A DNA stretch of 64,000 bases from an uncultured Gammaproteobacteria bacterium (GCA_964445435.1 CAYUKU010000001.1:118942-182941); one strand, 5' to 3'; positions 26,002 to 64,000 are shown, numbered from the stretch's first letter. The notes: generated by a model not told the origin, from the letters alone. Numbers and translations are program-made.

Positions 26002-26003
26002 TC

Positions 26004-26760: not shown

Positions 26761-26806
26761 AGTTCCAGTATATAACCCAGGCACCAAAAACGCCACACGA
26801 AAAACG

Positions 26807-27475: not shown

Positions 27476-27476
27476 G

Positions 27477-27564
27477 TGGCGGAGAGTGTGGGAGTTGAAC
27501 CCACTCATCGCTATTCGCGATGCAGGTTTAGCAAACCTGTGCCTTACCGTCCGGCCCACTCTCC
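27477..27564 (-). tRNA. tRNA-Ser (anticodon GCT), type II, CCA encoded
   Basis: Hand-folded: acceptor GGAGAGT, anticodon loop TTGCTAA (GCT), long variable arm, T-arm GGTTCAACTCC, 3' GCCA. Confidence 0.85.
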
Positions 27565-27594
27565 AATGGGTGTATTATATCAGCTGATCGAAGC

Positions 27595-28242: not shown

Positions 28243-28392
28243 ACCGGGTTGCGAAATTTTGACCTTTGCCTTTGCGCGTTATCGAAATCTCGATATCTTC
28301 CACCTTTGCAATGTCACATTATATTGGTGTCGGGAGCGGATACGCGCGCAGGCAAAGAAAAAACGCGCGTCGAAATTCTACTACCCGGCATA

Positions 28393-29064
28393 CTACCGGG
28401 CCATCGTAATGGCCCAAACGCTCCCTGCTCCCACCCGCTTTAAGGCTTTGCACGCGGATCGAATTGTCGCGCCCGTCGTAAACACATCATCAAACAACAG
28501 AACGTTCCTGCCGCGGACGGCTGATTCGTGCGCAGTGAATATATCCTCAACGTTCTGCAGTCGCTGTCTCCTGTTTGCTATTTCGGCCTGTGGTGACGTT
28601 CCCCGTGTGCGTCTGAGTATATCCACGGTTATAGGAATATGCAATTTCTCCGACACAAACCTGCCCAAAACTTCCGCTTGGTTAAACCCACGGTACCGCA
28701 ATCGGGAAGAATGAAGTGCAATAGGAACAAGGCTGTCACTGAGAGGAATTCCATCAAATGCGCTGCTGTCGACAAGAGCGACAAACTCACGCGCGAGATC
28801 TGAAACGAAACGGTATTTGAGCACTTTCACCGCCTCCCGCACTGCGCCATCATAATGAAAGAAGCTCGTAAGACCATCAGGGGCATACCGTGTCCGACAC
28901 CGGGGATGAGTCATGCCCGCGATCGCCGGGTGCTCACACACCGGACAAATGGATTCATTGAGCGTGATGCTGCGAATCTTCTTCCGGCAGTCGCCACAGA
29001 AATACTGACCCACCCGACCGCACCCGAGACACCGCCTGGGGAAAATATAATCAACAAGGCCCAT
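28393..29064 (-). CDS. comF: ComF-family protein (double zinc ribbon + phosphoribosyltransferase domain)
   Basis: N-terminal CxxC...CxxC pairs (CLGCG...CGDC, CPVC...), C-terminal PRTase motif VLLFDDVFTTGAT. Confidence 0.8.
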   Translation of the reverse strand: MGLVDYIFPRRCLGCGRVGQYFCGDCRKKIRSITLNESICPVCEHPAIAGMTHPRCRTRYAPDGLTSFFHYDGAVREAVKVLKYRFVSDLAREFVALVDSSAFDGIPLSDSLVPIALHSSRLRYRGFNQAEVLGRFVSEKLHIPITVDILRRTRGTSPQAEIANRRQRLQNVEDIFTAHESAVRGRNVLLFDDVFTTGATIRSACKALKRVGAGSVWAITMAR

Positions 29065-29076
29065 GCCCCTATTATA

Positions 29077-29485
29077 GGTGGAGATGCCGAGTAATGAGCT
29101 CGGGTCCGAAAGCGTGCATCGTCAACATCTACAAGCGTAGTCCGTTTGGTTTCCCGCATTCAATACGAACGGACAAAAATGACGCGGGAGGTTGATCGGA
29201 TAGAGTCTCTGATATGCGCCGATCAACGCATACCTGACGGTCCGGCTAGGTTTCCACCCCGAATGCCTCACCGAACGAAGAACAAACGGGATGATTCCTT
29301 ATGCTCGCGCGAATGCGTAAGCTCGGGAATACTTGAGGGCCAGCTTCTGCTCAAGAAGAGCGAGCTTTGCTTCAAGTGCTTCTACTGTGTTATCAGCAGA
29401 TAGTGTTTGATACAGTTTTGCGGCTCGTGTATCATCGCCGGCTTGCAGTTGTAAATGTACATCTCTCGTCGAATCAATCATCCCC
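29077..29485 (-). ncRNA. ssrA: tmRNA (ssrA), about 409 nt, immediately downstream of smpB
   Basis: Minus-strand 5' end GGGGATGATTGATTCGACG resembles the conserved tmRNA 5' (GGGGCTGATTCTGGATTCGACGGG). 3' end GGAC-CCGAG-CTCATTA-CTCGG-CATCTCC-ACC gives a T-arm plus 7-nt strand complementary to the 5' GGGGATG. An internal reading frame ends ...LALKYSRAYAFARA-TAA (candidate tag). No covariance search possible here. Confidence 0.65.
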
Positions 29486-47806: not shown

Positions 47807-50800
47807 TCACGAATGACCGCCACCGCCACCCGCGCCTGAAGCATCCTGCACGCCCTTCTTTGCACTTCCAAATGCACCCATAGCAAGAAGCGCGCCTCCG
47901 ATAAGCACGAACGCATACGCATTATATAAGCGCACGGTCTTGAATCCTGCAATCTGAATCCCGAACTTCCGGTGCATTTTGTGGGTAAAGTCAGGCATGT
48001 GAGTATGAAACTTCGTCTCCAATGCCGCCTCTACCTCGTGCTCGAGATGGTCCAAATCCACCCGACCCATGGCCGGTGCTCCTTGCCCTACCGCGCGCTG
48101 AGCCGCAGAAAGATCCATCGTCGTTCGATCATCACTAATACCTGATAAGTCGGCCCACAAATCTTTCACAACGGCCTGACGCCAACCATAGAACAACGTC
48201 TGCCCGACCGGTGCCTTGGCGCCCTCATAGCCACCGCTGAAGAGAATCGTGTCCACAAACGGCTTGAAATGCTGCATGAATGTCTTGCCATCCTTGGCGC
48301 CCAGTATGCCGATAAGGTCCTTCGCCATGGCATTCACTGAGTTTTGCGTATCTCCGGCCCAGCGCGGTAATCCGCCACCCGCACCGTGACCGCCCCGCAC
48401 TGAACTGATACGACCGGACCATTTGAGTTCCTTGCGTTGATGATCGGGATTATTGTCCTTAATGCCGTCCAGAAATTTGATACGCGGGTCGATCGTGTTC
48501 ACGGTCGTGAAATGAGCGGCGTACGCGGGATTTGCAAGATCTTCGATAATATGGGGATTGAGAGCAAAATCCGATGCGGCCTTCATCACATCCAGGTACG
48601 CTTTTACGTTTTCTTCTGGCGTAAGACTGCTGTCGCCCGTGGCGACACAAACTTTTTTAAGTGCGGCCTGTTCATGCGGCGAATAGACGCTCATATCTCC
48701 ATTCCACTTGGAGTAGTCAATCGGCCCTTGCGGCGTTTCTATCAGTTTTCCCCCGCTCCATTCGCGGGTAAGCGCAAGCTCAGTGTCTACCATCGCCCGT
48801 CGCATTTCGGCAGCCTTGATGGCTCCCCGCACAAACTGTTCCGGATTATTCGCGTTATAGACAAGATTCTCGCCCATTGCCGCATCGTGGAACCGGCTGA
48901 ACAGTGCGGAATTTGTGGAAAACCATTCAAACGTCTTCTCATGCATCTTTTGAGCAAGCGCATCGATGCTTGCGATGGGATCAAACTTCCCCATTAAGAC
49001 GAATGTCTTGGTTTTGAGTGTCACCTCTGCATCATGAAACTTCTTATGATCTCCCGCAGTATCAAACAGGCCGCCTGCGTCCAGACGAGCCGTCTCGTGG
49101 AGCAGAACTCCATTCGTCATGCCGGTATCTGCGTCAACGACTTTATAGAGACCAAAGTCCTTGAGAGCATCGATCTGCGACCCTATTTGCCAACCGGAAT
49201 CTATGTAATGATACGCTCCTGAGAACCGGGCGTCCAAGAGCCGTCGCCCTTCCCGATAGATAATCTGCTCCTCCAAATCAGCCTTCGTCAGCTCTGAAAG
49301 CGTCTGGGGAGTTTGTCGTTGCAATCCCTCCCGAGTTCCGCCAAAGAGCTGACGCAGAAAACTGTCCTCTCTTCGTATGCGCAATGAGCCAAACGCTCGT
49401 GCGACTGTCGCCTGATCATCCAGATCGTTGATGTTGAAAGCCATTTTCACCAGACGGTTCCATTCCGCCTGCGCCGCCCGCCCCTCGGGTGTAGGCAAAT
49501 TCCGTATTTTGTCAAGCTGACCTAACCGCGCGCGCCAATACGTATCGAGACCCACCCGTGATGCTTCCACGGCAAACATCTTTCGCATGACGAGGGCACC
49601 GAAATCGCTCTTAATCGCCCACCGATCTACCAGCCATTTAAACGGGTTCATCGAGAAAATGATTTTTCCCTCTGCCGGTTGGCCAGCAAACTCAAGCGGA
49701 TTTCCACTCTGGTGCATCATCTCAATCGGGGTAGCGGCTTTGCCGAAGATCTGTGCGCGCTGACCAGTGGCTTCGATAAGCATCGAAACTTCTCTCACGG
49801 CCATCTCTATGTCCGTCTTCTCAATTCTACGCCGTATGATGCGTCCGTTTTCATCTTTTCTCACGTCTCCATTTGTGTCGTATTCAACGCTTCCTTCCCA
49901 CTCCTGAAACCGGTCATTATACATCCCCTTTTGAGTTTGAGCGTGTGCCCACATTTGATCGACTATTGCGTCTTCCATCACTTCAATTCTCCCTGCTGTT
50001 AACGCACGGATGTATCCGTTCTCATCCCAAATTTCTGCCGCAAAGCGCTGTTTAAACACGCCAAACACCTCAAGATTGAGTCCGTTACGCTCATTTAACG
50101 TGCGCGGATACCCCTCGTCGCCGAAAATCGCGTAAACGCTCTTAAGCTTGTCCATCTCCGTATCAAGCTCAAGGCCTCCTTTTAAACGCAATAGCGCGCC
50201 GCGGATAGAAATAGTTCTGGAGATCTCTTTATTCCATTCAAGATACCCCTCGTTCATTTCCCTGTACCACTTATGATTAGTGTTGAGGACGCGGTTGCCA
50301 TCGCTGTCCAAAACCGGACTTCCATCAGGACGGACTTGGTAGATCGACTCTCCGCTTATTTGCGTAATCTCATCCCAGTTTCTCGGATCCCTCAAGTAAG
50401 CGAGGCGATTTTTGCGGTAATCATCGCTTGCGGCGTATTGAATAAGCTGAGAGTAATTGCGGTCAGCGGCCTCTTCCCACTTTCCTTCAAAAACGTTCAC
50501 AGTGGCGTTTATGAAATCCTGCTTGCTTCTGGCAAACACATCCACCCCGCGCCATGACCGCTTCATTTCTTCCAGAGAAAGGTATAAGCTGCTCCATCCC
50601 CGCTCAAGCTCACGCTCGGTGTACCGTTCCCTTCCAACACTAAGCGCCGTCTCCCGGAATGTTTCATACTTTTGGGCCAACTCCGGCTGGTCCGCCATGA
50701 GCCGTCTCCATGTATAGCTATCAGTATTGTGGTCCTGCATGGCAGTCATAAAATCAAAAATCTCATTTCGTACCCGCGGATCGTTCATGTTCCCGTGAGC

Positions 50801-52078
50801 ATCATGAAGGATTTTGTTGAAATGCTCCAGGCGGGATTTGAGATTTCGTGCCGCTACCCGCTCGGCAGGAATTGCCCTTGGACCTGCCACTTTATCCAGA
50901 TACTTTAACGCACCCGCGCTAAATTCATCGCCTCCGGGCGCTCTGCGCCTCGCACCACGCGCTCTTCCGCGCCCCCGACTCGTCCCAGCGGTGCCGATTG
51001 CCTCAAGCGCATCCTCAGCCCGATCGCCAAACTCGGGACTCACCTCATCGTGGTACATCTGGGCGACCTTCTCGGCGAAGCGTTTACGGAACGTATCACG
51101 CTCGCGCACCTGCTCATCAGTTGATCCCTGCCCGAGCGCCTTAATCTGAGAGCCCTTGGCAAGCAAAAACTCCTTGGTCCACGCATCTTCGCCGGCCTGT
51201 GCAATGTCATACACAACCTGCGCAATATCGGGATCTTTTATCAGCTCGCCATCAGAAACCAACCAGGATAATTCATTCGTCGTTCGTATTGTTTCTTGTA
51301 TCTTCCGATTCGCTTCGGCAGGTTCAACCGTACGCGTAATTTCCGGTCCCAACTTAAAGTCATCTAGAATCTGCGTCTCCAGATCCTCCGCCCACGCTTG
51401 GGTGTTCTCGGGATGCGCGCTGTGTGCGTGGTAATACACTGCCTGCTCGTCTTTCGTAATGCGCTCCACGCTTGCGCCCTTAAACGCCGGGTCATTTTTC
51501 ACGACTTCATCAAACCTCTTTCCTGAAGAGCCCTTAATCGCATCCCAATTGCGATATCCCCATTCGTACGCCGCCTGCCGCACTTCTCGCAAAACCATCT
51601 GATCCGACTCGCTTAGAGTCGTCATCTGCGGCATGTCTTTGAGGATGGTGCGCACCTTCGTCCATTCCTCTGCGCTGGGCGTGCTCCAGTTAATTTCCGG
51701 CGGCTGTTTATTCGGCGAAAGGCGGCTGATGCCGCCCAAAAGCCGCTGGTTATCTATAGGAACCGACGCGCGGAACTGATCTGACACGAGTACCGTCATC
51801 TTCTGCTCCGCAGAAAGCGGAGATCCCGCCTCTTGTCCGGCACGGATCATGGCTTTGCGGACAACTTCCGTATCCTGAACTTTGGGCTGGGTTTCTCCTT
51901 TGGTTTGAGGCGAGACATCAGGAGCTTTTTTTGGTTCTACTTTCTTCCCTCGTTCTTTCGCCTTTGCCTGGGTATTTGCGGTTGCAGCTTCCGCCTGCAC
52001 GACCATCGGAAGCGGTTTGTTTTTCCCCGCGTTTTCAAAAAGCGATTTCAGTGCATCGAAGAGTTCTTTTGACGCCAT
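47807..52078 (-). CDS. Giant (1423 aa) tail-anchored hypothetical protein, no recognisable domains
   Basis: Single uninterrupted 4.27 kb ORF; Arg/Gly-rich patch SRGRGRARGARRRAPGG; single C-terminal TM helix LYNAYAFVLIGGALLAMGAF followed by a Gly-run; downstream of T4CP-like gene and nadD on the same strand. Confidence 0.6.
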   Translation of the reverse strand: MASKELFDALKSLFENAGKNKPLPMVVQAEAATANTQAKAKERGKKVEPKKAPDVSPQTKGETQPKVQDTEVVRKAMIRAGQEAGSPLSAEQKMTVLVSDQFRASVPIDNQRLLGGISRLSPNKQPPEINWSTPSAEEWTKVRTILKDMPQMTTLSESDQMVLREVRQAAYEWGYRNWDAIKGSSGKRFDEVVKNDPAFKGASVERITKDEQAVYYHAHSAHPENTQAWAEDLETQILDDFKLGPEITRTVEPAEANRKIQETIRTTNELSWLVSDGELIKDPDIAQVVYDIAQAGEDAWTKEFLLAKGSQIKALGQGSTDEQVRERDTFRKRFAEKVAQMYHDEVSPEFGDRAEDALEAIGTAGTSRGRGRARGARRRAPGGDEFSAGALKYLDKVAGPRAIPAERVAARNLKSRLEHFNKILHDAHGNMNDPRVRNEIFDFMTAMQDHNTDSYTWRRLMADQPELAQKYETFRETALSVGRERYTERELERGWSSLYLSLEEMKRSWRGVDVFARSKQDFINATVNVFEGKWEEAADRNYSQLIQYAASDDYRKNRLAYLRDPRNWDEITQISGESIYQVRPDGSPVLDSDGNRVLNTNHKWYREMNEGYLEWNKEISRTISIRGALLRLKGGLELDTEMDKLKSVYAIFGDEGYPRTLNERNGLNLEVFGVFKQRFAAEIWDENGYIRALTAGRIEVMEDAIVDQMWAHAQTQKGMYNDRFQEWEGSVEYDTNGDVRKDENGRIIRRRIEKTDIEMAVREVSMLIEATGQRAQIFGKAATPIEMMHQSGNPLEFAGQPAEGKIIFSMNPFKWLVDRWAIKSDFGALVMRKMFAVEASRVGLDTYWRARLGQLDKIRNLPTPEGRAAQAEWNRLVKMAFNINDLDDQATVARAFGSLRIRREDSFLRQLFGGTREGLQRQTPQTLSELTKADLEEQIIYREGRRLLDARFSGAYHYIDSGWQIGSQIDALKDFGLYKVVDADTGMTNGVLLHETARLDAGGLFDTAGDHKKFHDAEVTLKTKTFVLMGKFDPIASIDALAQKMHEKTFEWFSTNSALFSRFHDAAMGENLVYNANNPEQFVRGAIKAAEMRRAMVDTELALTREWSGGKLIETPQGPIDYSKWNGDMSVYSPHEQAALKKVCVATGDSSLTPEENVKAYLDVMKAASDFALNPHIIEDLANPAYAAHFTTVNTIDPRIKFLDGIKDNNPDHQRKELKWSGRISSVRGGHGAGGGLPRWAGDTQNSVNAMAKDLIGILGAKDGKTFMQHFKPFVDTILFSGGYEGAKAPVGQTLFYGWRQAVVKDLWADLSGISDDRTTMDLSAAQRAVGQGAPAMGRVDLDHLEHEVEAALETKFHTHMPDFTHKMHRKFGIQIAGFKTVRLYNAYAFVLIGGALLAMGAFGSAKKGVQDASGAGGGGGHS

Positions 52079-52705: not shown

Positions 52706-54892
52706 TTATTTATTCACCTTCTTGGCATACCGCTCGCGGGAGGAGCGGATGACTTTTTCTCTATTCTGGTTTCTGCTTCTGGGAAGGGGCAATGTCTTCG
52801 CAGAAAACGGCGAACTCGTGTGATTGTCAATTGACAGCTTCATGACGACCTCATAGTTACCCATCGCCACGAGCTCGTTTTCCTCATACTTCTCGCCGAA
52901 TTCCCGCGACAGAATCCGTGCGTCTGCCGCGCCCACCCCAAAGGAAACAATGGATCCCGCGTTGCCGAATATCGCCTTCTGGACATCTTCGTCAATCTGA
53001 CCAATATACTGGTTTGCAAGCGTCAAATCCAGGCGGTATTTACGCGCCTCGGAGAGAATTTTTATAAATGATGTGGTGGCGAAATTCTGAAACTCGTCAA
53101 CGTACAGATAAAAGTCGCGCCGCTCCCCTTCTGCCAGATATACGCGGTTCATAGCGGCAAGCTGCATTTTCGTGATGATCATGGCCCCCAGAAGCGCACT
53201 GCTGTCTTCTCCGAGCTTGCCTTGAGACAAGTTTACGAGAACTATCTTCCCCTGGTTCATCATGCTCTCAAGATCAACTGTTGACGTGGGGCTTCCGACG
53301 ATATTTCTGATTGTTTGTGATGAGAGAAACTGCCCGACCTTGTTGAGAATCGGCGACACTGCTTCTGAGCGCATTTGTGGCGACATTTTCGCAAACTCAT
53401 TGAGCCAGAAATTTTTGAGAACCTGGTCTGCCATCTTCTCAACGACCTTGCCGCGGTATTTTTCGTTGGTGAGAAGCTCGGGCACCTGAAGAAGCGTCGA
53501 ATTGGGAACATTCGTAAGGGTCAGAATGGTATTTCTCAGAATATATTCGAGCCGCGGCCCCCAGCTTAGGTGGTACAGTTTGTAAAAAATCGAAACGATG
53601 CCGCTACTGACCAGCTCGCGATAGGCCGTGTTTCTTACTTCCAGCGGATTCAGGTGAAATGGATACTCAATATCTGATGGGTCCAAATACGCAACGTCGT
53701 TAATGCGGTGCGATGGCACGTAATCCAAGAGGATATCCGTTAAGTCACCGTGAGGGTCGACGACGGCCACCCCTTCGCCGTTTTTCATGTCATTGATCGC
53801 CATATTGGCGATCATCGTTGATTTACCGGTACCCGTCTTTCCGACGATATACACATGTTTCCTGCGGTCTGCCTTCTTGATGCCAAATGTGGCGAGCTTG
53901 TTTTTGTATTCCGTGCGTCCGAAGAAGTTAATCTGCTTTTTCTCTTCCTCATTGTCCGTTGCCACGGGCAGATTCTCCGGAGCCTCACCGGTCAACTGGG
54001 AACCCCAGGAGATATTTTTAATCATGGAAAGCGCAAGTCCCGGCGGATGCCAGAGGGAGGCAAGCTCACTGGCGTTGAGAACCTGGAATCGGGGCGCAAC
54101 TGAACCGTTTCTCTCCACAAAGCCCTGTTCGAGTTTTTTCTTCTGCCAGAACGCGGGCTCGCTGATCACCAATCCGTTTCCCTCTCCCAACGTGTACACC
54201 CCAAACGTCCCACCCACTCCGTGAAGCAGCTCGTTTGCACGCGCGTCGGAGGCGGCCACCGACACGAGCCGAATTGCCGTTCCAAAACCAACCTGGGCGA
54301 TTTTGGTCTCAATGAGGCGCGCATGGGGATGGGCCTTCATGCGACCCGTCGTTGATGACGTGTCGGGAACTCCCCTTGCAACAATCGCGGAAGCCGAATG
54401 CTGCCAATTGGTTCCTGCCGGAGTAATGCGAAACTGGATAGCGACCGCCTCCCCAACCGGAAGCTTGGCCAGCTGTCCCAGAAGGCTTGCCAGAATATCC
54501 AAGTCTTTTACGTCTTTGTACGTTTTGAGAGGATAGTAGTACGCATTGGATAAGACGACCTGTGCAATCTTATGCGGAAGGGCGAGAAAGTGCGGCGCGT
54601 AATCCTCAACCGGCGCCAAAAGCACTTTCGGGTATTGCGCGGTCAGTTGACTCTCCACATACGTCTGGAGTGACGAAGGTACGCCGACGAAAAAATGAAT
54701 CCGCGAGTTGACGGCAACCAGCTCAAAACTGAAATACTTCGGCGCATGACGGGGACGAAACAACATGGAAAGAAACCCGCCATGGCCACCTCCGGCGCCT
54801 AGCGCGGCAAAAATCTGCTCCATTGCGGCAGGCGTTTCTTCTGAGTCGCGGCTATTTTTTACTTCCAGAAGCACAAACGGAGATTCCGTCAT
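52706..54892 (-). CDS. VirD4/TraD/TrwB-like type IV coupling protein-like ATPase (FtsK/HerA superfamily)
   Basis: Walker A IVGKTGTGKST...VVDPHGD; C-terminal block ILSEARKYRLDLTLANQYIGQIDEDVQKAIFGNAGSIVSFGV resembles the TrwB_AAD/T4CP DNA-binding ATPase motif; no obvious N-terminal TM (atypical for T4CP). Confidence 0.55.
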   Translation of the reverse strand: MTESPFVLLEVKNSRDSEETPAAMEQIFAALGAGGGHGGFLSMLFRPRHAPKYFSFELVAVNSRIHFFVGVPSSLQTYVESQLTAQYPKVLLAPVEDYAPHFLALPHKIAQVVLSNAYYYPLKTYKDVKDLDILASLLGQLAKLPVGEAVAIQFRITPAGTNWQHSASAIVARGVPDTSSTTGRMKAHPHARLIETKIAQVGFGTAIRLVSVAASDARANELLHGVGGTFGVYTLGEGNGLVISEPAFWQKKKLEQGFVERNGSVAPRFQVLNASELASLWHPPGLALSMIKNISWGSQLTGEAPENLPVATDNEEEKKQINFFGRTEYKNKLATFGIKKADRRKHVYIVGKTGTGKSTMIANMAINDMKNGEGVAVVDPHGDLTDILLDYVPSHRINDVAYLDPSDIEYPFHLNPLEVRNTAYRELVSSGIVSIFYKLYHLSWGPRLEYILRNTILTLTNVPNSTLLQVPELLTNEKYRGKVVEKMADQVLKNFWLNEFAKMSPQMRSEAVSPILNKVGQFLSSQTIRNIVGSPTSTVDLESMMNQGKIVLVNLSQGKLGEDSSALLGAMIITKMQLAAMNRVYLAEGERRDFYLYVDEFQNFATTSFIKILSEARKYRLDLTLANQYIGQIDEDVQKAIFGNAGSIVSFGVGAADARILSREFGEKYEENELVAMGNYEVVMKLSIDNHTSSPFSAKTLPLPRSRNQNREKVIRSSRERYAKKVNK

Positions 54893-55106
54893 GAGGCTAT
54901 AGTATCACAAAAATCGCAGGCTACGAGCTGCGTAAATAAGGGGCGAGAGAATAATTTGAAAGGCAACTGCGCGTTTGCGTGGCTTATCTTATGTTGCCCG
55001 TATATGAAACGCGCATTTAACGAGGATGGGATAGGCTTCCGCGATAAAACGAGGTCGCCAAGTGGGTCTTTGCAAATTCTTTCGCTCGCCCCTTTTAAAA
55101 ACCTTT

Positions 55107-55135
55107 CGTGAAAACTGAAAATGAGAGTTTTCACG
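55107..55135. promoter_or_regulatory. Perfect 10-bp inverted repeat (CGTGAAAACT-n9-AGTTTTCACG) in divergent T4SS promoter region
   Basis: Located in the 325-bp gap between the divergently transcribed T4CP-like gene and the PrgI-like gene, about 85 bp upstream of the PrgI-like ATG; candidate operator. Confidence 0.3.
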
Positions 55136-55218
55136 ATTCTGATGCGCTTTGTGCTATTGCGCTCGCGTCAAAATTACCCCAAAATAGTACTACCAGCCGA
55201 TAGTGCGGAGTTCTGTCT

Positions 55219-56631
55219 ATGGAACAACATCCGGTACCACAAAACGTCACCACATTTCAGTTTCGACTGATCGGCGACATGACCATTAAACAGTTCGGCT
55301 ATCTGGCCGGAGGAGCAATCTTGGCGTATATCTGCTATAAGCTCCCGCTGCCGTTTTTCTTCACCTGGCCCATGGCAACGATAGCAGCTCTCGCAGGTGT
55401 TGGATTTGCGTTCGTTCCGGTCGAGGAACGCCCAATGGACATCTGGGTCATGTCGTTCATAAAAAACGTCTACAACCCGACGCAATTTGTGTGGGAAAAA
55501 ACAGCCGAACCTCCAAAGCCCGCCCCCGCGGCTCCCCCAGCACCTCGACCTGTTGTTGCGCCGCATCCAAAACCAACCATGGGAACACCCGCACCCTCTG
55601 CGGTTTCCCACGCACAGCCTCAAGCTCCAGCCGCGCAAACAGGGCGCCAAGTCTCAGACGTCGTGGCGGGGATATTTACACAGCCAAAACCGACCCAGCC
55701 AATGCCAGCGCCCGTCGGGCAGACCGTGCCGACCCCTGCATATCATCCAAGCCAAACGGCAGGGAAAAAAGTTGGCCCCTTTGACTGGCTAGTCCGGCTA
55801 TTTGCACCAGCTGCGCGGCCCGCGACGAGCCCGCAACACGTGGTGCCCTATCAAAGCGCACCAACGTCGTTATCGGCTGCACCCTCAATTTCTGCTCCCT
55901 CGGTAACGGGCCGACATCTGGATCTCACGCCGCCGCCAAAAGTCGTTCCTACGGAAACGCAAATGGCAACGGTCCAAAAAAAGGAAACTGAGTTGGAAAC
56001 GAAACTTCAGGAACTGAAGGTAGAATTGGAAACCAAAACACAAACACAGGCGCGGGTGCTGGAACTGCAAAAACAGCTGACCGATATGCTCTCTGAGCGA
56101 GATCGCATGAGAAAAGAGCTCGAAGCGCTTCGCGCCAAAGCGGCGCCTCCCCCTGCGCCAACCGCCGTCGTACCGCCGAAGCCGGCAGACACAAATACGG
56201 TTGTCTCGACACCCCCTCCGCAAACTGCCGCAGCGCCCCAACGACCACAGGGTCCGACGGTCAAAATAATTACGCCTCAGGAGGCGGTGAAAGCAGGGCT
56301 TCCGCGGCTCACCACATTTCCCAACGTTGTCACGGGCATCACGCGCGATTCGGACAACAACCTCCTCCCCGGCGTTCTTGTCACCGTCAAGGACCACGAC
56401 GGCGTGCCGGTGCGCGCCCTGAAAACAAACCGACTGGGACAATTTGCTGCTTCAACACCGCTGGGGAACGGGGTATATTTCGTGGAGATCGAAGACCCGC
56501 GAGGCCGCTACACATTTGACCGCGTGCAGATCACGCTCAATGGATCCATTGTGCCCGCTCTCGAAATCATCGCAAAAAGCCAAAAGGAAGTCGCCCGCGA
56601 AAGGCTCGCCAAGGAAATTTTCGGAAGCTAA
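55219..56631 (+). CDS. PrgI-like T4SS membrane protein with long Pro-rich linker, coiled coil and C-terminal beta-sandwich-like domain
   Basis: N-terminus FQFRLIGDMTIKQFGYLAGGAILAYICYKLPLP matches the PrgI-family motif and two-TM topology; then about 150 aa Pro/Ala-rich low complexity, a coiled coil (about 250-300) and a C-terminal about 110-aa domain. Confidence 0.55.
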   Translation: MEQHPVPQNVTTFQFRLIGDMTIKQFGYLAGGAILAYICYKLPLPFFFTWPMATIAALAGVGFAFVPVEERPMDIWVMSFIKNVYNPTQFVWEKTAEPPKPAPAAPPAPRPVVAPHPKPTMGTPAPSAVSHAQPQAPAAQTGRQVSDVVAGIFTQPKPTQPMPAPVGQTVPTPAYHPSQTAGKKVGPFDWLVRLFAPAARPATSPQHVVPYQSAPTSLSAAPSISAPSVTGRHLDLTPPPKVVPTETQMATVQKKETELETKLQELKVELETKTQTQARVLELQKQLTDMLSERDRMRKELEALRAKAAPPPAPTAVVPPKPADTNTVVSTPPPQTAAAPQRPQGPTVKIITPQEAVKAGLPRLTTFPNVVTGITRDSDNNLLPGVLVTVKDHDGVPVRALKTNRLGQFAASTPLGNGVYFVEIEDPRGRYTFDRVQITLNGSIVPALEIIAKSQKEVARERLAKEIFGS

Positions 56632-56632
56632 T

Positions 56633-57292
56633 ATGGTACAAAAAATTATTCCCATAAGATCGACAACCCAACTGTTCGTTGAAATTGAAACGATCGACCA
56701 CGACATAGTCGTATATCAGGATGGCTCGGCCAGCCTCGTCATCACCACAACAGCGGTTAACTTTGGCCTTCTGTCTGAGCGGGAACAGGACGCAATCATT
56801 ACCGCATACGCGGGACTTCTTAATTCGCTGTCCTTCCCCATTGAGATTCTTATACGCACGCAGCATAAAGACGTGACTGCATACCTGCGGCTTCTGGAAG
56901 AACAGGAACGCAAACAGAAAAACCCCAAGCTCCAAAAAAGTATCCATGACTACCGGCTGTTCGTGGCAGCAACTGTCAAGGAGAAGGATGTACTAGATAA
57001 GAAATTCTATATCATCATTCCGTTTTCGAACCTGGAGCTGGGAGCTTCCCCAACTGTATTGTTCGGCAGCAAGAAGAAAGGCCTGCCATATCCACTCTCA
57101 TATATTTTCGAACGCGCATTGACCGTCCTCAACCCGAAACGCGACCATATCCTACGACTTCTTAACCGCGTCGGACTTCAAGCAAGTCAATTGACAAACC
57201 AACAGCTGGTAAAGCTCTTTTTTACAACCTATAACGCGGGGGTTCCATTGCCCGATGACGAAACAGTAACCCACGCGCTTACCCGTACATGA
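56633..57292 (+). CDS. Hypothetical T4SS-associated protein (220 aa), possibly VirB4 N-terminal-domain-like
   Basis: Starts 1 nt after PrgI-like stop and ends 1 nt before VirB4 ATG; no ATPase motifs; ORF-track N-terminal extension (from 56444) overlaps the PrgI-like gene and is rejected. Confidence 0.45.
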   Translation: MVQKIIPIRSTTQLFVEIETIDHDIVVYQDGSASLVITTTAVNFGLLSEREQDAIITAYAGLLNSLSFPIEILIRTQHKDVTAYLRLLEEQERKQKNPKLQKSIHDYRLFVAATVKEKDVLDKKFYIIIPFSNLELGASPTVLFGSKKKGLPYPLSYIFERALTVLNPKRDHILRLLNRVGLQASQLTNQQLVKLFFTTYNAGVPLPDDETVTHALTRT

Positions 57293-57293
57293 T

Positions 57294-59216
57294 ATGAGCA
57301 TAAAAGCAGCACTCAGAAAAATCATTGACCCGATGCCGGAAGAGAAACCGGTCAATCAGACGGTACATACCGAAAACTTGACTGTGAAGGATATTATAGC
57401 CCCTCCCTCAATTGATGTAGACTTTGACCATCTGAAAATAGGCAATTACTACTACCGCACGCTCTTTGTGGCAGGGTACCCGCGGTTTGTAAGTGCCAAC
57501 TGGCTTGAGCCGCTTATCTCCTTCAACCATACGCTTGATATCGCCATGTATGTGTACCCAACCAGAAGTGAAGAGGTGTTGGAAAATCTGAAGCGTAAAG
57601 TGGGAGAAATGGAGGCGACCATCCAGTCCGACATGAAGCGCGGCAGAGTAATCGAACCGTCCATCCAGGTAGCCCTTGAAGACGCCCTTGCGCTTCAACA
57701 AGAGCTCGCCAAAGGAGCACAACGGTTCTTCCAGTTCGGACTCTATGTCACTATTCCCGCAAAAAGCCTGGACGACCTCAATAAGGCAACCAAGCAGGTC
57801 GAGGCAACGCTCGCCTCGCTTCTTATCGTCACCAAACGGGCAACGCTCCAGATGGAGGAGGGTCTCAAGACTACGCTTCCGATGGGCCAGGACCGTATCG
57901 TTATCACGCGAAACATGGACACCACGTCCCTGGCAACCACCTTCCCTTTCACGACAAGCGAGTTGACCGCAAACGAAGGAATCCTCTACGGGATCAACTC
58001 GCACAACGATAGCCTGGTGGTATTTGACCGGTTTACGCTCGAAAATGCCAACACCGTCGTCTTCGGAAAATCGGGCTCGGGAAAAAGCTACATGGTGAAA
58101 CTGGAAATCCTGCGAAGTCTCATGTTTGATACCGAAGTGATCGTCATCGACCCCGAGAACGAATACGAAACGCTTACGCGAGCGCTCGGCGGCGAGTATA
58201 TCCGGTTCCACTTCGGTACGAATACGAAAATCAACCCTTTCGACATCGCCCTTTTGCATCAAACCGGGTCGGGTCAGGGAGACAGCGAGCTGAATCAAAA
58301 AATACTTTCGCTTCATGGGTTTTTTCGTGTCGTTATGGGAAAACTGACACCCACGGAAGACGCGCTTCTTGATCGTGCGCTTATCCTTGCGTACAAACAA
58401 AAGGGCATAACGCCCGACCCCACCACACAAAGCAAAGAGCCTCCCCTGATGGAAGATCTTTATAAAACGCTCGTTGGCATGGAGGATTCGATTGCGCGGG
58501 GGCTTGCCGATCGCATTGAAAAATTCGTAAAAGGAAGCCTGGTTGGAATCTTCGATCAACAAACCAATGTGGCCATCAGAAACCAGCTCACCGTGTTCTC
58601 CATACGGGATCTCGAAGACGAACTTCGCCCGATTGCCATGTATCTTATCCTCGATTTCATCTGGACCAAGGTGCGCCGCGATACGAAACGCCGAATTCTC
58701 ATCGTTGACGAGGCGTGGTACATGATGAAATTCCCGGATTCCGGCGCCTTCCTCAACTCCATCGCCAAACGTGCACGCAAGTATTATCTTGGCCTTACGA
58801 CGATCACCCAGGACGTCGAAGACTTCCTTTCAGTCGAGCTTGGGAAAACAATCATCCAAAACAGCAGCTTGCAAATCCTCCTTAAGCAATCAACGGCGGC
58901 CATAGACCGCGTCGGAGAGGTGTTCTTCCTGTCTGAAGGGGAAAAACAACTTCTCCTGTCGGCAAACGTAGGGGAGGGGCTGTTTTTCGCAGGGCCCTCA
59001 CACGCCGCAATTCGCGTGATTGCCTCCCCACAGGAGCACGCCATTATAACAACCAAGCCGCAGGATTTGGCAGCACAGAGGGCCGCACAGAACGCACCCC
59101 GGTCTCCCGCGCCTTCCGGCACCATCGTGCCGGGCGCCGTCAAACCAACACCGCCAGCCTCTGGAACAACAAATAGACCCATCTTTACGGTAGAATCAGT
59201 AAACGGAGCGCAATAA
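57294..59216 (+). CDS. VirB4-family T4SS ATPase (Gram-positive TraE/PrgJ-like length)
   Basis: Walker A VVFGKSGSGKSYM, Walker B RILIVDEAWYMM, N-terminal YYRTLFVAGYPRFV...WLEPL block typical of VirB4/TraE; 640 aa. Confidence 0.8.
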   Translation: MSIKAALRKIIDPMPEEKPVNQTVHTENLTVKDIIAPPSIDVDFDHLKIGNYYYRTLFVAGYPRFVSANWLEPLISFNHTLDIAMYVYPTRSEEVLENLKRKVGEMEATIQSDMKRGRVIEPSIQVALEDALALQQELAKGAQRFFQFGLYVTIPAKSLDDLNKATKQVEATLASLLIVTKRATLQMEEGLKTTLPMGQDRIVITRNMDTTSLATTFPFTTSELTANEGILYGINSHNDSLVVFDRFTLENANTVVFGKSGSGKSYMVKLEILRSLMFDTEVIVIDPENEYETLTRALGGEYIRFHFGTNTKINPFDIALLHQTGSGQGDSELNQKILSLHGFFRVVMGKLTPTEDALLDRALILAYKQKGITPDPTTQSKEPPLMEDLYKTLVGMEDSIARGLADRIEKFVKGSLVGIFDQQTNVAIRNQLTVFSIRDLEDELRPIAMYLILDFIWTKVRRDTKRRILIVDEAWYMMKFPDSGAFLNSIAKRARKYYLGLTTITQDVEDFLSVELGKTIIQNSSLQILLKQSTAAIDRVGEVFFLSEGEKQLLLSANVGEGLFFAGPSHAAIRVIASPQEHAIITTKPQDLAAQRAAQNAPRSPAPSGTIVPGAVKPTPPASGTTNRPIFTVESVNGAQ

Positions 59217-59219
59217 TCC

Positions 59220-61535
59220 ATGGCCACACAACAACAGTCTCCCCTGCCGCTTTCGGACTTTCTTTCAGAGGTAGTCCGGGCAATTGACGATCACCAGGAA
59301 GTATCTCTTGCCGCCATACTTGCTCACGCGGAAGAATATCAGGAACTACGGGATTTCATGCTTAAGAATCCCGAATGGGTGGCAGGGGTTATGATCGAGG
59401 AGCCGAAGGATGGGCTTGCAAAAATTCGGGAACTTTTTTCCGACCCGAAAGAAATTCTTGCTCAAATCGCCCCCCGCGGCGCTGAGGGACTCTCCCAATT
59501 CGTCGAACCAGAAGCACGGTTTGCGCAGAGCCTTCCGATCGGAGAGGTAACGCCAGCACGGGAAAAAGCATGGGAAGACCTTATCACGCACGATCGGGCA
59601 CTTTTGGCAAAAAAGGTCGCCAAAACGAGAAAAACCACCCAGGAATTCTTTCATAAGATCCACACCATCCGCGCGTATGGCACCCCGGAGGCCGCAGAAG
59701 AAATGAAGAAAGTGGAGCATGAAGTACATCTCAAAAACTTCGAAGAAATACGTAAAGAGCTTATAGAAATCGCGCGAAAACGCGGCAACAAAGAGGATGT
59801 AAAAGAAGCGGAAGAAATTATCGAACGTTTCGTGCCGCAAATAACATCAGAGGACCTCACGGAACCAATTCGTCTGGCTACCGCCACCTCCAAAACAGTA
59901 CTTGAACACCCGGATGTGGAAAACACCGTTATCATCGCTGAATCCATCGAGCGCGGAGACGCCGCGCGTGATGCCGTACGACTTTCCCGTATCGCCACGG
60001 CCATTGAGCACCCGGTGCAAAACGTGCGCGAGATTCCTCTGAGGGCAGCGTTTGAAGACGTGGCGGGAACCGTACTTCCGAACACTCAAGACGTAGTAGA
60101 CCGGATCTTTTCCAATACGTGGCGCGCCACGACAACAGCCGAGTCCTTCGTCGGCAACATGACGCAGCGTCTCGGAGAAGAAGCGGTAAACAGTCCTGAA
60201 TTTAAAGGCCTTATAGAACGGGGAAACGCATATGCAAGACAACGGTCAGCGTCTGGTGGAAATGTGCTAAGCGGATTGTTTTCCATACCCAAGGAGCCGG
60301 ATCCGGATATGGAGGCCTACCTTGAGGCCGTCTATAAAAAAGTCGGCGGAGGGGAATTCGGCAGCAATGATTTCTTTGCGGGCAAAGCCTACGCCAATCA
60401 TCCGGATCATTTCCACTTCGAATTCGAATCACCCTTCAATATACTATTCCGATTCGGCGCAAGGGAAGAAGCGGCCACGGTTGCGCGCGGCACTGCCGGA
60501 GCAGTAACCCGGACCGGTCTGGGTGCATGGACAAAAGAGTCTATCAAAAAACTCGGAGCGAATTTTCTCGCTAAATTCGGAATACAGGCTGGCGGCAAAC
60601 TCGCGGCTGTTCTCAGCGGACCGGTTGGATGGGTTATTTTCGCCGTTACCATCGTATTGCCGTACGTATGGGACTGGGTAAAACGCGCCGGCGGCAAGAT
60701 CATGAGCGCAGTCGGCGGAGGCATCATCGGTGGCGTGAGAGCGGCAAGCGAAGGGTTTGCAGCGAGCTGGGCGGCGTTTCTGCAAACATACGCAAAATAC
60801 AAGGACCCGGTGCCAACCTGGGTTGTCATTGCTGCCATGGTAGCCTCCCCTGTTTTGATTGCACTTCCGATAACATCGCTTTTTCCTTCAACCGCAAGCC
60901 AAACACAAGTCAGAAGAGCAGCAGTGCTCTCGGTTGGGGGCGGCGGGGTTGTGCCCGTCCCCCAGGCGTGTGACCCGGCAACAGATCCCACGTGTGTGCC
61001 GCTATTCTGCGACCCGTCCAAACAAAGCTGTGAGTGGCCCACGCCGTGCGGGTGCATCACTCAGGGGCCCAATTCTGGGGGGTCACACTCGGGACTCAAT
61101 GCAATCGACATCGGAACAAACGGCGGCGCGTGCAGCCAATCGTATGATGGAAACCCGCCAAGTAGTCCTCCAGTATACGCCGCGTGTGCGGGAACGATCA
61201 CCCGCGCGTATTTCGGACTCGGAGACGGAGAAATTTGTAAAGACTTCCGAAGTGCGAAGTGCGGATACGGATATGGCAACAACGTATATCTCAATTGCAC
61301 CGACGGGAAAACACAATTTATCTATGGCCATCTCCTCAAACCCGGCCCCGGAATTTCACAGGGGGCATCCGTACAGCAAGGGCAAGTCCTCGGGTATGTT
61401 GATAACAACGGCAACTCTACCGGACCTCACCTTCATTTCGAATATCGCGGAGTAAACGGCGCCAGCGTACAGGATATTACAAAAATTCTCCCGCCCGAAT
61501 ACGCACTCGGGTATTGCTGGTCGGGAGGAAGATAA
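59220..61535 (+). CDS. T4SS-associated cell-wall hydrolase: large protein with two TM helices and C-terminal M23 (LytM-type) peptidase domain
   Basis: C-terminal HSGLNAIDIG (H-x-x-x-D) and GPHLHFEYR (HxH) M23 zinc-binding motifs; central TM helices; 771 aa; functional analog of VirB1/PrgK/TcpG-type hydrolases. Confidence 0.7.
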   Translation: MATQQQSPLPLSDFLSEVVRAIDDHQEVSLAAILAHAEEYQELRDFMLKNPEWVAGVMIEEPKDGLAKIRELFSDPKEILAQIAPRGAEGLSQFVEPEARFAQSLPIGEVTPAREKAWEDLITHDRALLAKKVAKTRKTTQEFFHKIHTIRAYGTPEAAEEMKKVEHEVHLKNFEEIRKELIEIARKRGNKEDVKEAEEIIERFVPQITSEDLTEPIRLATATSKTVLEHPDVENTVIIAESIERGDAARDAVRLSRIATAIEHPVQNVREIPLRAAFEDVAGTVLPNTQDVVDRIFSNTWRATTTAESFVGNMTQRLGEEAVNSPEFKGLIERGNAYARQRSASGGNVLSGLFSIPKEPDPDMEAYLEAVYKKVGGGEFGSNDFFAGKAYANHPDHFHFEFESPFNILFRFGAREEAATVARGTAGAVTRTGLGAWTKESIKKLGANFLAKFGIQAGGKLAAVLSGPVGWVIFAVTIVLPYVWDWVKRAGGKIMSAVGGGIIGGVRAASEGFAASWAAFLQTYAKYKDPVPTWVVIAAMVASPVLIALPITSLFPSTASQTQVRRAAVLSVGGGGVVPVPQACDPATDPTCVPLFCDPSKQSCEWPTPCGCITQGPNSGGSHSGLNAIDIGTNGGACSQSYDGNPPSSPPVYAACAGTITRAYFGLGDGEICKDFRSAKCGYGYGNNVYLNCTDGKTQFIYGHLLKPGPGISQGASVQQGQVLGYVDNNGNSTGPHLHFEYRGVNGASVQDITKILPPEYALGYCWSGGR

Positions 61536-61550
61536 GGCTATACTGATACT

Positions 61551-62564
61551 ATGCGACTGTCCACAAAAACGATAACGATCATTGGAATATTCGTCGTCAC
61601 GCTTTTGGTGGCTTTTTGGCTTGCAGCTCGACAAGAAAAACCGACTACAAAAACACCCTCTCCCTCCCCCAACACAGGGACAGCGCCCAGAGAAATTCCT
61701 GCGCTTATTTCCGGTCCTATCCAAAATAAGCAGCCGTCGGTCCGATTTGTCTTGTCATTCCCACCAATATCCGTCCCGGAAACGCTTCCTGTTTACTCAA
61801 CAAAGGAGCCAGACATGACCGCGTCGTGGACTACCATTGCCCAAAATCTCGGTTTCTCGGGGCCCGGCACGAGCCCGAAAGACCAGCCAACCATGCGCTG
61901 GTGGATAAATTCCGCCGGCACTCTAAAAGTATATTCATCTCCCCCCAGTGTCGCGTTTACCGCGCAACGGGATCTTGTCGGCCCTCCAACAGAGATTGAG
62001 GCCAATGGTGCCCTTTCAGCGTTTGTTTCCAAAACGGGCATTCTTGGCGGAGCAGTAAGCTTCGTCCCGACCCCGGTCCAATATGTGACAGTGGAAGGGT
62101 CAAGCTATCTTCCCGCTGCTGACAAAACGAAAGCGTCTATGGCAATCGCGTCGCTCGACTATCGAATCAACAACATGCCGCTGTATGCCGCATCAGGACT
62201 TCCGTATGAGGCTGTGGGACAGGTGCATGCGGGCGGAACGCTTCGCTCTGCCATGGTCCCTGCGCCGCCAATTATCCTGTCCTCCGCAGAAAAGCAAACC
62301 ATTGCTCTTTCTGCAGCCGCAACGCACTTATCAAACAACAGGGGAACCCTTGTCAGTATCCGCGCTTCGACGCCGGGAGAAACCTCGATAAGTGAAATCA
62401 ATTTCTCGACCGTACTTATCACGAAGGCGTCACTTGTATATCTTTATGTGAACAGGGCGGAACAAATCCTTCCGGTCTATCTTTTTGAGGGAAGCGTTAC
62501 AAGCGGAGAGGGAGACTCCCGCGGGGCCGTTGCCGCATTCTTCGTGCCTGCAACGTATAATTAA
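61551..62564 (+). CDS. Membrane-anchored extracytoplasmic protein, hypothetical (last gene of T4SS-like operon; VirB8-like topology)
   Basis: N-terminal TM IGIFVVTLLVAFWLAA, Pro/Thr/Ser-rich linker, about 270-aa soluble domain. Confidence 0.45.
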   Translation: MRLSTKTITIIGIFVVTLLVAFWLAARQEKPTTKTPSPSPNTGTAPREIPALISGPIQNKQPSVRFVLSFPPISVPETLPVYSTKEPDMTASWTTIAQNLGFSGPGTSPKDQPTMRWWINSAGTLKVYSSPPSVAFTAQRDLVGPPTEIEANGALSAFVSKTGILGGAVSFVPTPVQYVTVEGSSYLPAADKTKASMAIASLDYRINNMPLYAASGLPYEAVGQVHAGGTLRSAMVPAPPIILSSAEKQTIALSAAATHLSNNRGTLVSIRASTPGETSISEINFSTVLITKASLVYLYVNRAEQILPVYLFEGSVTSGEGDSRGAVAAFFVPATYN

Positions 62565-62568
62565 AGCG

Positions 62569-63672
62569 CTAGTTCTGCACCCGAACCGGCATGATGATAT
62601 GAAGGTAAGAATCGTCTTTTGCCGGGCGAAACACGCCCGGATTAAGTGATCCGGTCATTTCAAACAACACCTCGTCTGAGGGGAAATTTGAAAGACACTC
62701 GAGAAGAAAACGGCTATTTATCGCCATGTCTCCACCATCTCCGTCCACCTTCGCATCTACGGCGACCTCATTTTCTCCAATCTGCGGCGCATTTGCCGAA
62801 ACGGTAACCGTCTGGTTTTCTACATGAAGCTTTATGATGTTTGCATTGTCCCGCGCAAAAATTGCGGCTGACTTCACAGCACGGAATAGGGCGTCCCTTT
62901 CAAATAATATCCGCGTGTTCCACTTGGTGGGAATTATTTTTTCAAAGTTGGGATAATCCCCTTCTATGAGGCGCGCGTGAAGGTCCGTATCTCCGATAAC
63001 AAACACAAGCTGTCCGGCCGCAGGACTATTCATATAGATTTCTTTTACGTCTTTTTCTTCCTGGCTTATTTTCGTAACCTCAGCAAGCGCGCGAGCGGGA
63101 ACAAGAAGATCCAACGGTTCTTTTGTGGCAAGGTTGATTCTCTTTAAGGAAAGCCGGTATCCGTCTGTAGCCGCAAAAAGCGTTTCCCCGTCCCTTTGAA
63201 GAACCCGAACGCCCGTCAGAAGCGGGCGCCCCTCGTCTGTGGCAGCAGAAAATATCACTTGCGCCACCGCGGTTACGAATTCGTCTTTCGCAAGCTCCGA
63301 TCCTTTCTTCTCCGACACGGAAGCCTGGGGAAATTCGCTCTCCGGGACGCCTGGAATAATCGCCTTCACACCCTGGGTTTTCACCGTTAGGCTCCCCTCT
63401 TTCACCGCAAGACTCACGGGCGTCTGAGGAAGTGATGCGACAAGCTCAAGAAGAAGTCGGGAAGAAACACATATGCCGCCCTCTTTCTCCACTTTTGCGC
63501 CAAGCCAAACTGTTTCTGTAGTTTCAAGGTTTGTAACAGTTATGCGAAGTCTTCCCTCTTTGGCAGACAGAAGAATGTTTGAGAGGATGGGTAGTTGCGG
63601 CTTAGAAGAAACGATCCTCCCCGTTCTAATAAGTGCTCGCAGCAGGTTTTCTTGTAAAAGAGAAACAATCAT
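62569..63672 (-). CDS. dnaN: DNA polymerase III beta subunit (sliding clamp)
   Basis: 367 aa; three-domain clamp length; N-terminal LLRALIRTGRIVSSKPQLPILSNILL typical of DnaN; immediately downstream of dnaA. Confidence 0.9.
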   Translation of the reverse strand: MIVSLLQENLLRALIRTGRIVSSKPQLPILSNILLSAKEGRLRITVTNLETTETVWLGAKVEKEGGICVSSRLLLELVASLPQTPVSLAVKEGSLTVKTQGVKAIIPGVPESEFPQASVSEKKGSELAKDEFVTAVAQVIFSAATDEGRPLLTGVRVLQRDGETLFAATDGYRLSLKRINLATKEPLDLLVPARALAEVTKISQEEKDVKEIYMNSPAAGQLVFVIGDTDLHARLIEGDYPNFEKIIPTKWNTRILFERDALFRAVKSAAIFARDNANIIKLHVENQTVTVSANAPQIGENEVAVDAKVDGDGGDMAINSRFLLECLSNFPSDEVLFEMTGSLNPGVFRPAKDDSYLHIIMPVRVQN

Positions 63673-63873
63673 ACAAATCTGTTATGTGTTATTAGTAGTA
63701 ATAATAAGAAAGCGGTGTGGAAAAGTGTATGGTAATTTGCGCTGGCTGTCAACGGGTTGTTGTGACGCCTAGTTTTTGAATTTTTTGCAGGGACAAAAAG
63801 GTGTTGATTACCGGTGGATATCTGTGTGGATAAATTTGGAATTTTTGTGGAAAAGTGGAAAACCGAGAACGGG
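63673..63873. other. oriC: Putative chromosomal replication origin (oriC) segment: dnaA-dnaN intergenic region with DnaA boxes and AT-rich DUE-like stretch
   Basis: Perfect DnaA box TGTGGATAA (63825-63833, revcomp TTATCCACA), two TGTGGAAAA boxes (63716-63724, 63846-63854) and an adjacent AGTGGAAAA; AT-rich run TTATGTGTTATTAGTAGTAATAATAAGAAAG at 63675-63705. Confidence 0.55.
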
Positions 63874-64000
63874 TTATGCCCACACATTTTGTTTTATCCC
63901 CGAAACCGCCTCCCTGAGACGTTCGTTTGTGGACAACTCGCGCGTTATGGTTTCCACGCCATGCATGATCGTGGTATGATCGCGGCCACCGAGCGCACCG
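63874..64000 (-). CDS. dnaA: Chromosomal replication initiator protein DnaA, C-terminal 41 codons (5' part beyond window)
   Basis: Minus-strand frame from 63999 reads GALGGRDHTTIMHGVETITRELSTNERLREAVSGIKQNVWA-stop; GGRDHTT(V/I)xH is the DnaA domain IV signature; stop TAA at 63874-63876. Confidence 0.75.
   Translation of the reverse strand, partial: GALGGRDHTTIMHGVETITRELSTNERLREAVSGIKQNVWA

Follow-up and report, generated by a model that had tools for sequence, protein, structure and literature searches.

The dnaA and dnaN genes meet at the right-hand edge of a stretch of DNA of 64,000 nucleotides (the window, by which the whole stretch analysed is meant), and this arrangement raises the question of whether the edge coincides with the chromosomal origin of replication and, in that case, of what kind of origin it is. 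The initial annotation had placed the window at the chromosomal origin, a placement that is supported by a cluster of DnaA boxes, an array of DnaA-trios, the least stable DNA of the window, and a switch of skew at the same point in related genomes. The unwinding origin very probably lies in the spacer between both genes together with a box in the end of dnaA (63673-63936), which would represent oriC or at least its unwinding half.

The minus-strand frame that ends at the TAA stop codon upstream of dnaN translates into GALGGRDHTTIMHGVETITRELSTNERLREAVSGIKQNVWA*, which corresponds to the terminal part of DnaA domain IV. The gene continues beyond the window edge, with 41 residues of DnaA inside the window, and this fragment matches Bac_DnaA_C with an E value of 5e-4, over 41 aa only, and is nearly identical to the C-terminal ends of the full-length DnaA proteins (453 aa) of relatives. 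Translation and Pfam domains thus confirm the partial dnaA and the dnaN annotated at the window edge, and the spacer described between them is also present, although it measures 201 bp (63673-63873, 39% G+C) and not 200 bp. The homologues of DnaN belong to Gottesmanbacteria or Microgenomatia (CPR/Patescibacteria), the named matches, with 59-66% identity, being Candidatus Gottesmanbacteria; judging from these sequences, the organism is a Gottesmanbacteria-like member of Patescibacteria (CPR). Nine relatives were selected by protein similarity (L001, L004, L006, L007, L008, and L012-L015; 55-79% DnaN identity), and every relative with gene calls shows the order dnaA, spacer of about 200 bp, dnaN, and convergent block of genes resembling a type IV secretion system (T4SS). 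The origin layout itself is repeated in 9/9 of these Gottesmanbacteria relatives and in about 60 distinct metagenomic loci. On the other side of dnaA, the neighbours differ among relatives (PQQ propeller, RGP, Wzy_C, and ribosomal protein L25); rpmH/rnpA, which had been anticipated there, are not adjacent to dnaA in relatives, and in L014 yidC and jag are found about 7-8 kb upstream of dnaA. The features of the region are collected in Table 1.

Table 1. Features of the dnaA-dnaN region and of the adjoining T4SS-like block, with the dnaA promoter regions of four relatives. Positions are those of the window unless a relative is named.
Feature	Position	Strand	Sequence or composition	Basis or remark
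dnaA, 3' end	63874-64000	minus	last 41 codons and TAA stop (63874-63876)	translation; Pfam Bac_DnaA_C
DnaA box within dnaA coding sequence	63928-63936	minus	TTGTCCACA, 1 mismatch	Leu-Ser-Thr codons
Distal box pair 1	63846-63862	minus	two boxes, 8 bp offset	box scan
Pair 1, first member	63854-63862	minus	TTTTCCACT, 2 mismatches	box scan
Pair 1, second member	63846-63854	minus	TTTTCCACA, 1 mismatch	box scan
Distal box pair 2	63813-63833	minus	two boxes, 12 bp offset	box scan
Pair 2, first member	63825-63833	minus	TTATCCACA, perfect	box scan
Pair 2, second member	63813-63821	minus	ATATCCACC, 2 mismatches	box scan
Possible weak box	63802-63810	minus	TAATCAACA, 2 mismatches	partly conserved in ten-spacer alignment
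Variable linker	63753-63801			sequence not conserved in ten-spacer alignment
Sigma-70-type promoter-like site	63724-63752	minus	TTGACA (63752-63747), 17-bp spacer, TACACT (63729-63724)	promoter scan
Proximal DnaA box	63716-63724	minus	TTTTCCACA, 1 mismatch	box scan
GC cluster between proximal box and trios	63712-63715	minus	CCGC	read from sequence
DnaA-trio array	63690-63710	+	seven trinucleotides	box-adjacent run
A+T-rich least stable duplex, likely first opening site (DUE)	63673-63711			overlaps trios; ends at dnaN start codon
dnaN (DNA polymerase III beta clamp)	62569-63672	minus	367-aa ORF	all three beta-clamp Pfam domains
337-aa ORF	61551-62564	+		T4SS-like block; no Pfam match
M23 peptidase	59220-61535	+		T4SS-like block
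VirB4/TraG-P-loop ATPase	57294-59216	+		T4SS-like block
282-aa ORF	56444-57292	+		T4SS-like block
PrgI-like protein	55219-56631	+		T4SS-like block
VirD4/TrwB-like ATPase	52706-54892	minus		T4SS-like block
dnaA promoter and inverted box pair	L001:8360-8410
dnaA promoter and inverted box pair	L004:8355-8410
dnaA promoter and inverted box pair	L012:8355-8405
dnaA promoter and inverted box pair	L015:8295-8345

Measured against the consensus 5'-TTATCCACA-3', the spacer holds the densest DnaA-box cluster in the window, and all six spacer boxes are co-oriented on the minus strand. The perfect consensus box and the two one-mismatch boxes of the initial annotation are indeed located in the spacer, the latter two with the same sequence, TTTTCCACA. 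Neither at least three same-strand boxes with up to one mismatch nor six with up to two mismatches per 201 bp were reached in dinucleotide shuffles of the window (0/200 in both cases), and the box scan, one of the checks proposed at the outset, revealed no second DnaA-box cluster elsewhere in the 64-kb window. A perfect box TTATCCACA on the + strand (27842-27850) was considered as a second origin and rejected, being inside a minus-strand ORF (27595-28242) and having no partner boxes; this box adjoins a stretch that ranks among the least stable of the window.

Both distal box pairs are conserved blocks in the alignment of ten spacers, and the TTTTCCAC of the proximal box, which would act as the double-strand anchor of the unwinding module, is invariant across them. 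Box pair 2 and the proximal box (63724-63821 in the window, about 9850-9950 in the relatives) are 96-97 bp apart in six of seven genomes (the window, L001, L004, L012, L014, and L015) and 71 bp apart in L013. Since this distance is kept while the intervening sequence diverges, it suggests a constraint on spacing or phasing, which would be expected if the distal boxes act by looping. The box inside the dnaA coding sequence is kept by codon choice: in 62 distinct loci its Ser codon is TCC in 88% of cases, against a background of 19%, and its Thr codon is ACA in 76%, against 35%.

Beyond the proximal box and the GC cluster, the trios on the + strand read AAG AAT AAT AAT GAT GAT TAT in 3'->5' direction from the box, and the same tract on the minus strand reads 5'->3' TTC TTA TTA TTA CTA CTA ATA. 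All seven contain a central adenine and 5/7 fit the pattern 3'-[G/A]A[T/A]-5'. The spacer from box to first trio is 5 bp long (CCGCT), within the 0-16 bp rule and close to the median of 4 bp over 61 distinct loci, and 60/62 distinct loci have C as the second base after the box. Published rules for the search of basal unwinding systems (BUS) consider a box with up to two mismatches, a spacer of 0-16 bp, and at least three consecutive NAN trios, with the consensus 3'-GAT-5', on the strand that has its 3' end towards the box (PMC8287927), and the site in the window, with one mismatch in the box, a 5-bp GC-rich spacer, and seven trios, falls within them. Nevertheless, this minimal rule is permissive, with 47 chance matches in the window, and therefore the argument for a BUS is built on the length of the run, its uniqueness, and its conservation, the minimal rule being replaced by run length and stricter trio patterns. 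Thus, the array is the only box-adjacent NTN run of seven in the window, the next best having four, and the sole site in the window with more than three strict trios. Among 64 distinct dnaN-type loci, in which boxes of the opposite orientation are rare, the NTN run after the box has a median of 7, compared with a mean of 2.85 and a 95th percentile of 5 in shuffles of the same 45 nt, and the strict YTA run has a median of 4, compared with a shuffle maximum of 3. The trio run keeps a fixed distance to the box (sd 3.5-3.9 nt), whereas its distance to the start codon of dnaN is variable (sd 16 nt, range about 0-105 nt), so the function of the trios would be tied to the box rather than to translation. 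The succession of box, CCGC, and seven trios is, in its predicted function, the BUS of Bacillus-type origins, and the presence of a box-anchored DnaA-trio array makes the case for an origin much stronger.

Co-oriented tandem boxes at the trios are the commonest BUS arrangement, accounting for 57% of predicted BUS, without being obligatory (PMC8287927). At this locus, the slot of a second box beside the proximal box is taken by the -10-like CATACACT, with four mismatches to the box, and there is no convincing tandem box; the 9-mer in the place of the tandem partner, CCATACACT, at an 8-bp offset upstream of the proximal box, has four mismatches, which is the limit of the search program, and coincides with the -10-like hexamer. 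In one clade (L008:5300-5330, and also L063, L090, and L103) the trio tract contains CGA triplets (CTACTACGACGA), so that the trio strand has cytosine in the central position, in agreement with experiments in which cytosine was able to replace the central adenine of a DnaA-trio (PMC10721633).

The stretch of 30 bp with more than 80 percent AT that had been noticed adjacent to dnaN corresponds to the best 30-bp A+T interval, 63682-63711, with 83.3%, a value that is matched at a single other place in the 64 kb. Moreover, the least stable 20-mer (from 63690) and the least stable 40-mer (from 63671) of the window are both found here, with nearest-neighbour energies about 3.5 sd from the mean.

The phylogenetic footprint, an alignment of ten spacers (the window and its nine relatives, 55-79% DnaN identity), shows conservation limited to four kinds of element, namely boxes, promoter hexamers, GC cluster, and trios, while the intervening DNA diverges. 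The conserved blocks are, in order, TTTTCCAC-TTTTCCACA (pair 1), TTATCCACA-N3-TTATCCACM (pair 2), CCGTTGACA, CATACAC-TTTTCCAC, the GC cluster, and a trinucleotide repeat, ...TATTA(C/T)TACTACTAAT. A scan of metagenome contigs with the pattern GTTGACA-N17-TACACTTTTCCAC, from which the trios were left out, yielded 92 stretches, and the scored set comprised 105 loci with the pattern, including the window and the relatives fetched earlier. DnaN follows the pattern in 74/105 loci (45-79% identity, apart from the window itself) and the C-terminus of DnaA precedes it in 76/105, counts that are not independent events, the loci being phylogenetically related; the trio run is present in nearly all loci with DnaN context. 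The conserved block could partly reflect a promoter or 5'-UTR function. Twenty-four soil metagenome contigs (L016, L017, L023, and 21 others) were discarded as origins, being near-identical copies of one locus without trios, in which the pattern precedes a 230-aa hydrolase-like ORF in a G+C-rich context unrelated to an origin, and this locus serves as a natural negative control. Two odd matches without trios (L053 and L070) were set aside as unrelated or due to chance.

In Saccharibacteria (L009-L011, 32-33% DnaN identity), a box-like AAATCCACA, CCCC or GTGC, and TTACTACAACTACTAAG precede dnaN at about 9950-10000. A CAA interruption leaves the tract with fewer than three consecutive trios in that register. 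From this resemblance, the box-plus-trio module may be shared across CPR classes.

Strand composition points to the same location. GC skew on the + strand is negative in 32/32 two-kb intervals of the window, with the cumulative extreme at about 63518, about 155 bp inside dnaN (a minimum at base 483 in dnaA-to-dnaN orientation). The far side of the origin was taken from eight Gottesmanbacteria-type relatives with 10-kb flanks, and in 7/8 of them the sign changes at dnaA-dnaN, from -0.03 to -0.10 upstream of dnaA to +0.04 to +0.09 downstream of dnaN, the exception being L007, in which the left flank is not negative; the local cumulative minimum lies 110-156 bp into dnaN in six of them. The skew analysis, which the initial annotation had advised over the full contig, agrees with an origin here in two ways, by the extreme at the window edge and by the switch of sign in the 10-kb flanks of relatives. 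The sign is independent of gene orientation, since the T4SS-like block on the + strand (55-62.5 kb) has the same skew sign as the minus-strand genes. Some Microgenomates (UBA1400) exhibit monotonic skew over the whole genome (PMC7143001), so the one-sided skew of the window is not decisive alone, and it is the switch of sign in the relatives that counts. The minus strand carries 76% of the coding bases of the window, which run away from the origin end, as well as all six tRNA genes (four Ser and two Arg, 22112-29485) and the tmRNA gene (29076-29485), so that these RNA genes, too, are read in the direction of a fork leaving the right edge.

By analogy with incC of Bacillus subtilis and oriC2 of Clostridioides difficile, a mechanism can be proposed in which DnaA binding, DNA unwinding, helicase loading, and promoter activity would take place as follows. 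Domain IV of DnaA would bind the co-oriented double-strand boxes, and the distal box pairs would raise the local concentration of DnaA. ATP-DnaA anchored at the proximal TTTTCCACA (63716-63724) would then oligomerise over CCGC onto the + strand trios (63690-63710), capture the + strand, and open the A+T-rich duplex that immediately precedes dnaN; the helicase would be loaded at this point. Bidirectional replication would follow, and the window would constitute the first 64 kb of one replichore. The DnaA residues involved were checked on the relative L001 (453 aa), given that only 41 aa of the window's own DnaA lie inside it. The best PDB match of this protein is the cryo-EM entry of the B. subtilis BUS, 8BTG (E 2e-97), and in the alignment Asn187, Lys222, and the arginine finger Arg264 are kept, so that the trio-contact residues are conserved save for Val at the position of Ile190. 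These are the AAA+ and ISM residues of DnaA that act on single-stranded trios (PMC10721633).

Among characterised origins, the closest likeness is to the Firmicutes. The incC/BUS of B. subtilis, which is composed of DnaA-boxes 6/7, a GC cluster, DnaA-trios, and an A+T-rich element, also lies between dnaA and dnaN (PMC6669920, PMC8287927, PMC10721633). Both share the order of distal co-oriented boxes, proximal box, short GC-rich spacer, trios of the 3'-GAT-5' type, A+T-rich DNA, and dnaN. However, the proximal boxes of B. subtilis are in tandem, whereas here there is one good proximal box, and a conserved promoter has its -10-like hexamer where the partner would be; in addition, one box is inside the dnaA coding sequence here. 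Upstream of dnaA, the relatives have only an inverted box pair, unlike the incA/incB box clusters of B. subtilis, which are large. In oriC2 of C. difficile, DnaA-dependent unwinding has been located by P1 nuclease, and its trio tract, 5'-CACCTACTACTATTACTACTATGA-3' in dnaA-to-dnaN direction, matches that of the window in orientation and sequence (PMC7561715), both tracts being almost identical (CTACTACTATTACTACTA in C. difficile, TTCTTATTATTACTACTAATA in the window). The strand of the trios relative to the boxes, the location of the trios upstream of the DUE, and the presence of 5-9 boxes in the spacer are also shared with oriC2. Nevertheless, C. difficile also needs oriC1 for melting in vitro, whereas no comparable second cluster is evident in the relatives examined here. 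In actinobacteria such as Mycobacterium and Streptomyces, oriC is likewise situated in the dnaA-dnaN spacer and dnaN needs its own expression signals, but these origins are longer, G+C-rich, and contain many more boxes. The literature search for an anatomical description of a CPR oriC found only reports of T4SS-dnaA proximity and of atypical skew. By its elements and their order, the locus is best described as a Firmicute-style dnaA-dnaN origin with a predicted BUS, from which it differs modestly.

The likeness to Firmicutes brings up the possibility that the origin is bipartite, as in B. subtilis, C. difficile, and H. pylori, with the spacer as the unwinding half (oriC2) and a second box element upstream of dnaA, outside the window. 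Among Firmicutes, the origins that share this dnaA-dnaN unwinding module are bipartite (PMC6669920, PMC7561715), and C. difficile requires both halves in vitro (PMC7561715). In the six relatives examined upstream of dnaA, there are at most two boxes, and trios and an A+T-rich stretch are both lacking. The dnaA promoter has the form TTGACA-N17-TACTAT in 4/6, and an inverted pair of DnaA boxes, TGTGGACAA-C-TTATCCACC, follows the dnaA promoter in 5/6, a conservation that speaks for a second element. However, two inverted boxes over a promoter represent the classic layout of dnaA autoregulation and not a cluster, the element lacks both trios and an A+T-rich stretch, and L013 has no boxes in the 70-bp upstream spacer. 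Moreover, distal and proximal boxes are both available within the dnaA-dnaN spacer itself. The inverted pair is, thus, probably an operator for the autoregulation of dnaA and not a second box cluster, and we consider a bipartite origin unlikely, though still the most plausible departure from an origin contained in the dnaA-dnaN spacer.

The unwinding origin in the spacer seems to be interlaced with a promoter. The TTGACA-N17-TACACT site matches 10/12 consensus positions, and both hexamers and their 17-bp spacing are identical in 10/10 spacers, while the sequence between the hexamers varies; this candidate promoter probably drives dnaN. The last T of the -10 hexamer is the first base of the proximal DnaA box, and because of this shared base transcription would begin inside the box and run through the trios. 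DnaA bound at the proximal box would, in turn, occlude the putative dnaN promoter. The spacer contains no RNA family or tRNA according to Rfam and tRNA scans. A weak terminator-like hairpin (63883-63869, with a 5-bp stem) lies over the dnaA stop codon and overlaps the coding sequence.

A further proposal is that the promoter is itself part of the origin machine, so that RNA polymerase takes part in the opening of the origin or alternates with it. With the -10 hexamer in the position of the second BUS box and overlapping the proximal box by one base, the DNA melted in an open complex of RNA polymerase (about -11 to +2, roughly 63729-63716) would lie beside the trios. If so, the open complex could help DnaA to load on single-stranded DNA, a form of transcription-assisted firing in a single-box BUS; alternatively, transcription of dnaN and firing of the origin would be mutually exclusive. 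Either would provide a compact coupling of clamp supply to initiation in reduced genomes. This proposal is speculative and, in our opinion, rather improbable.

The same promoter could also be taken as the whole explanation of the locus, the spacer being only a DnaA-regulated dnaN promoter and leader in which the (YTA)n tract is a 5'-UTR or regulatory element, with the true origin elsewhere. DnaA is a known transcription factor, the near-consensus promoter is conserved at a fixed spacing of 17 bp, and the proximal box is at the would-be transcription start, as are the boxes after the dnaA promoter. Nevertheless, the skew changes sign here in relatives and has its extreme here in the window, and the trio tract keeps its place relative to the box, although it may lie anywhere from about 0 to 105 nt from the start codon. 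An operator needs neither five or six further co-oriented boxes, nor a codon-kept box in dnaA, nor the least stable DNA of the window; besides, the operator of the dnaA promoter has no such tract and Rfam finds no RNA family in the spacer. An origin located elsewhere is, accordingly, very unlikely. Finally, that the cluster is a chance gathering of DnaA-box-like words in A+T-rich intergenic DNA can be dismissed, for although single one-mismatch boxes are common (24 in the whole window), the cluster was reached in 0/200 shuffles, and the conservation of box position, orientation, and spacing at 55-79% DnaN identity, while the DNA between diverges, refutes it.

With the unwinding origin in the dnaA-dnaN spacer, the position of the window in the chromosome would be fixed as the first 64 kb of one replichore. 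The T4SS-like block (52706-62564) comes directly after dnaN, starting about 1.1 kb from the origin; its synteny holds in all the Gottesmanbacteria relatives, and its transcription meets forks from the origin head-on. The initial annotation had seen in the origin a genomic context for these genes, and this is supported, but it is not new, since proximity of Patescibacteria T4SS genes to dnaA/dnaN has already been published in the form of a virB4-type synteny in Microgenomatia, read as origin proximity (PMC12102498). That study infers the origin from the dnaA gene alone, without boxes, trios, or skew at the locus. Two further observations concern this neighbourhood. The VirB4-like gene of one relative (L013:14248-17922) encodes 1224 aa and contains, according to its Pfam matches, an intein with a LAGLIDADG homing endonuclease domain. 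No Pfam match at E <= 0.001 was obtained for the minus-strand ORF at 47807-52078 (1423 aa).

For a CPR lineage that is uncultured, the elements described here map oriC at the level of sequence, with boxes, promoter, GC cluster, trios, and DUE. Such a map could be used for closing and orienting metagenome-assembled genomes, for coverage-based estimates of growth rate, and for the design of a replicating vector or of a DnaA unwinding assay. Moreover, the view that the box-plus-trio module is ancient gains support from the about 60 distinct Gottesmanbacteria-type loci, alongside which the similar, interrupted tract before dnaN in Saccharibacteria may be cited.
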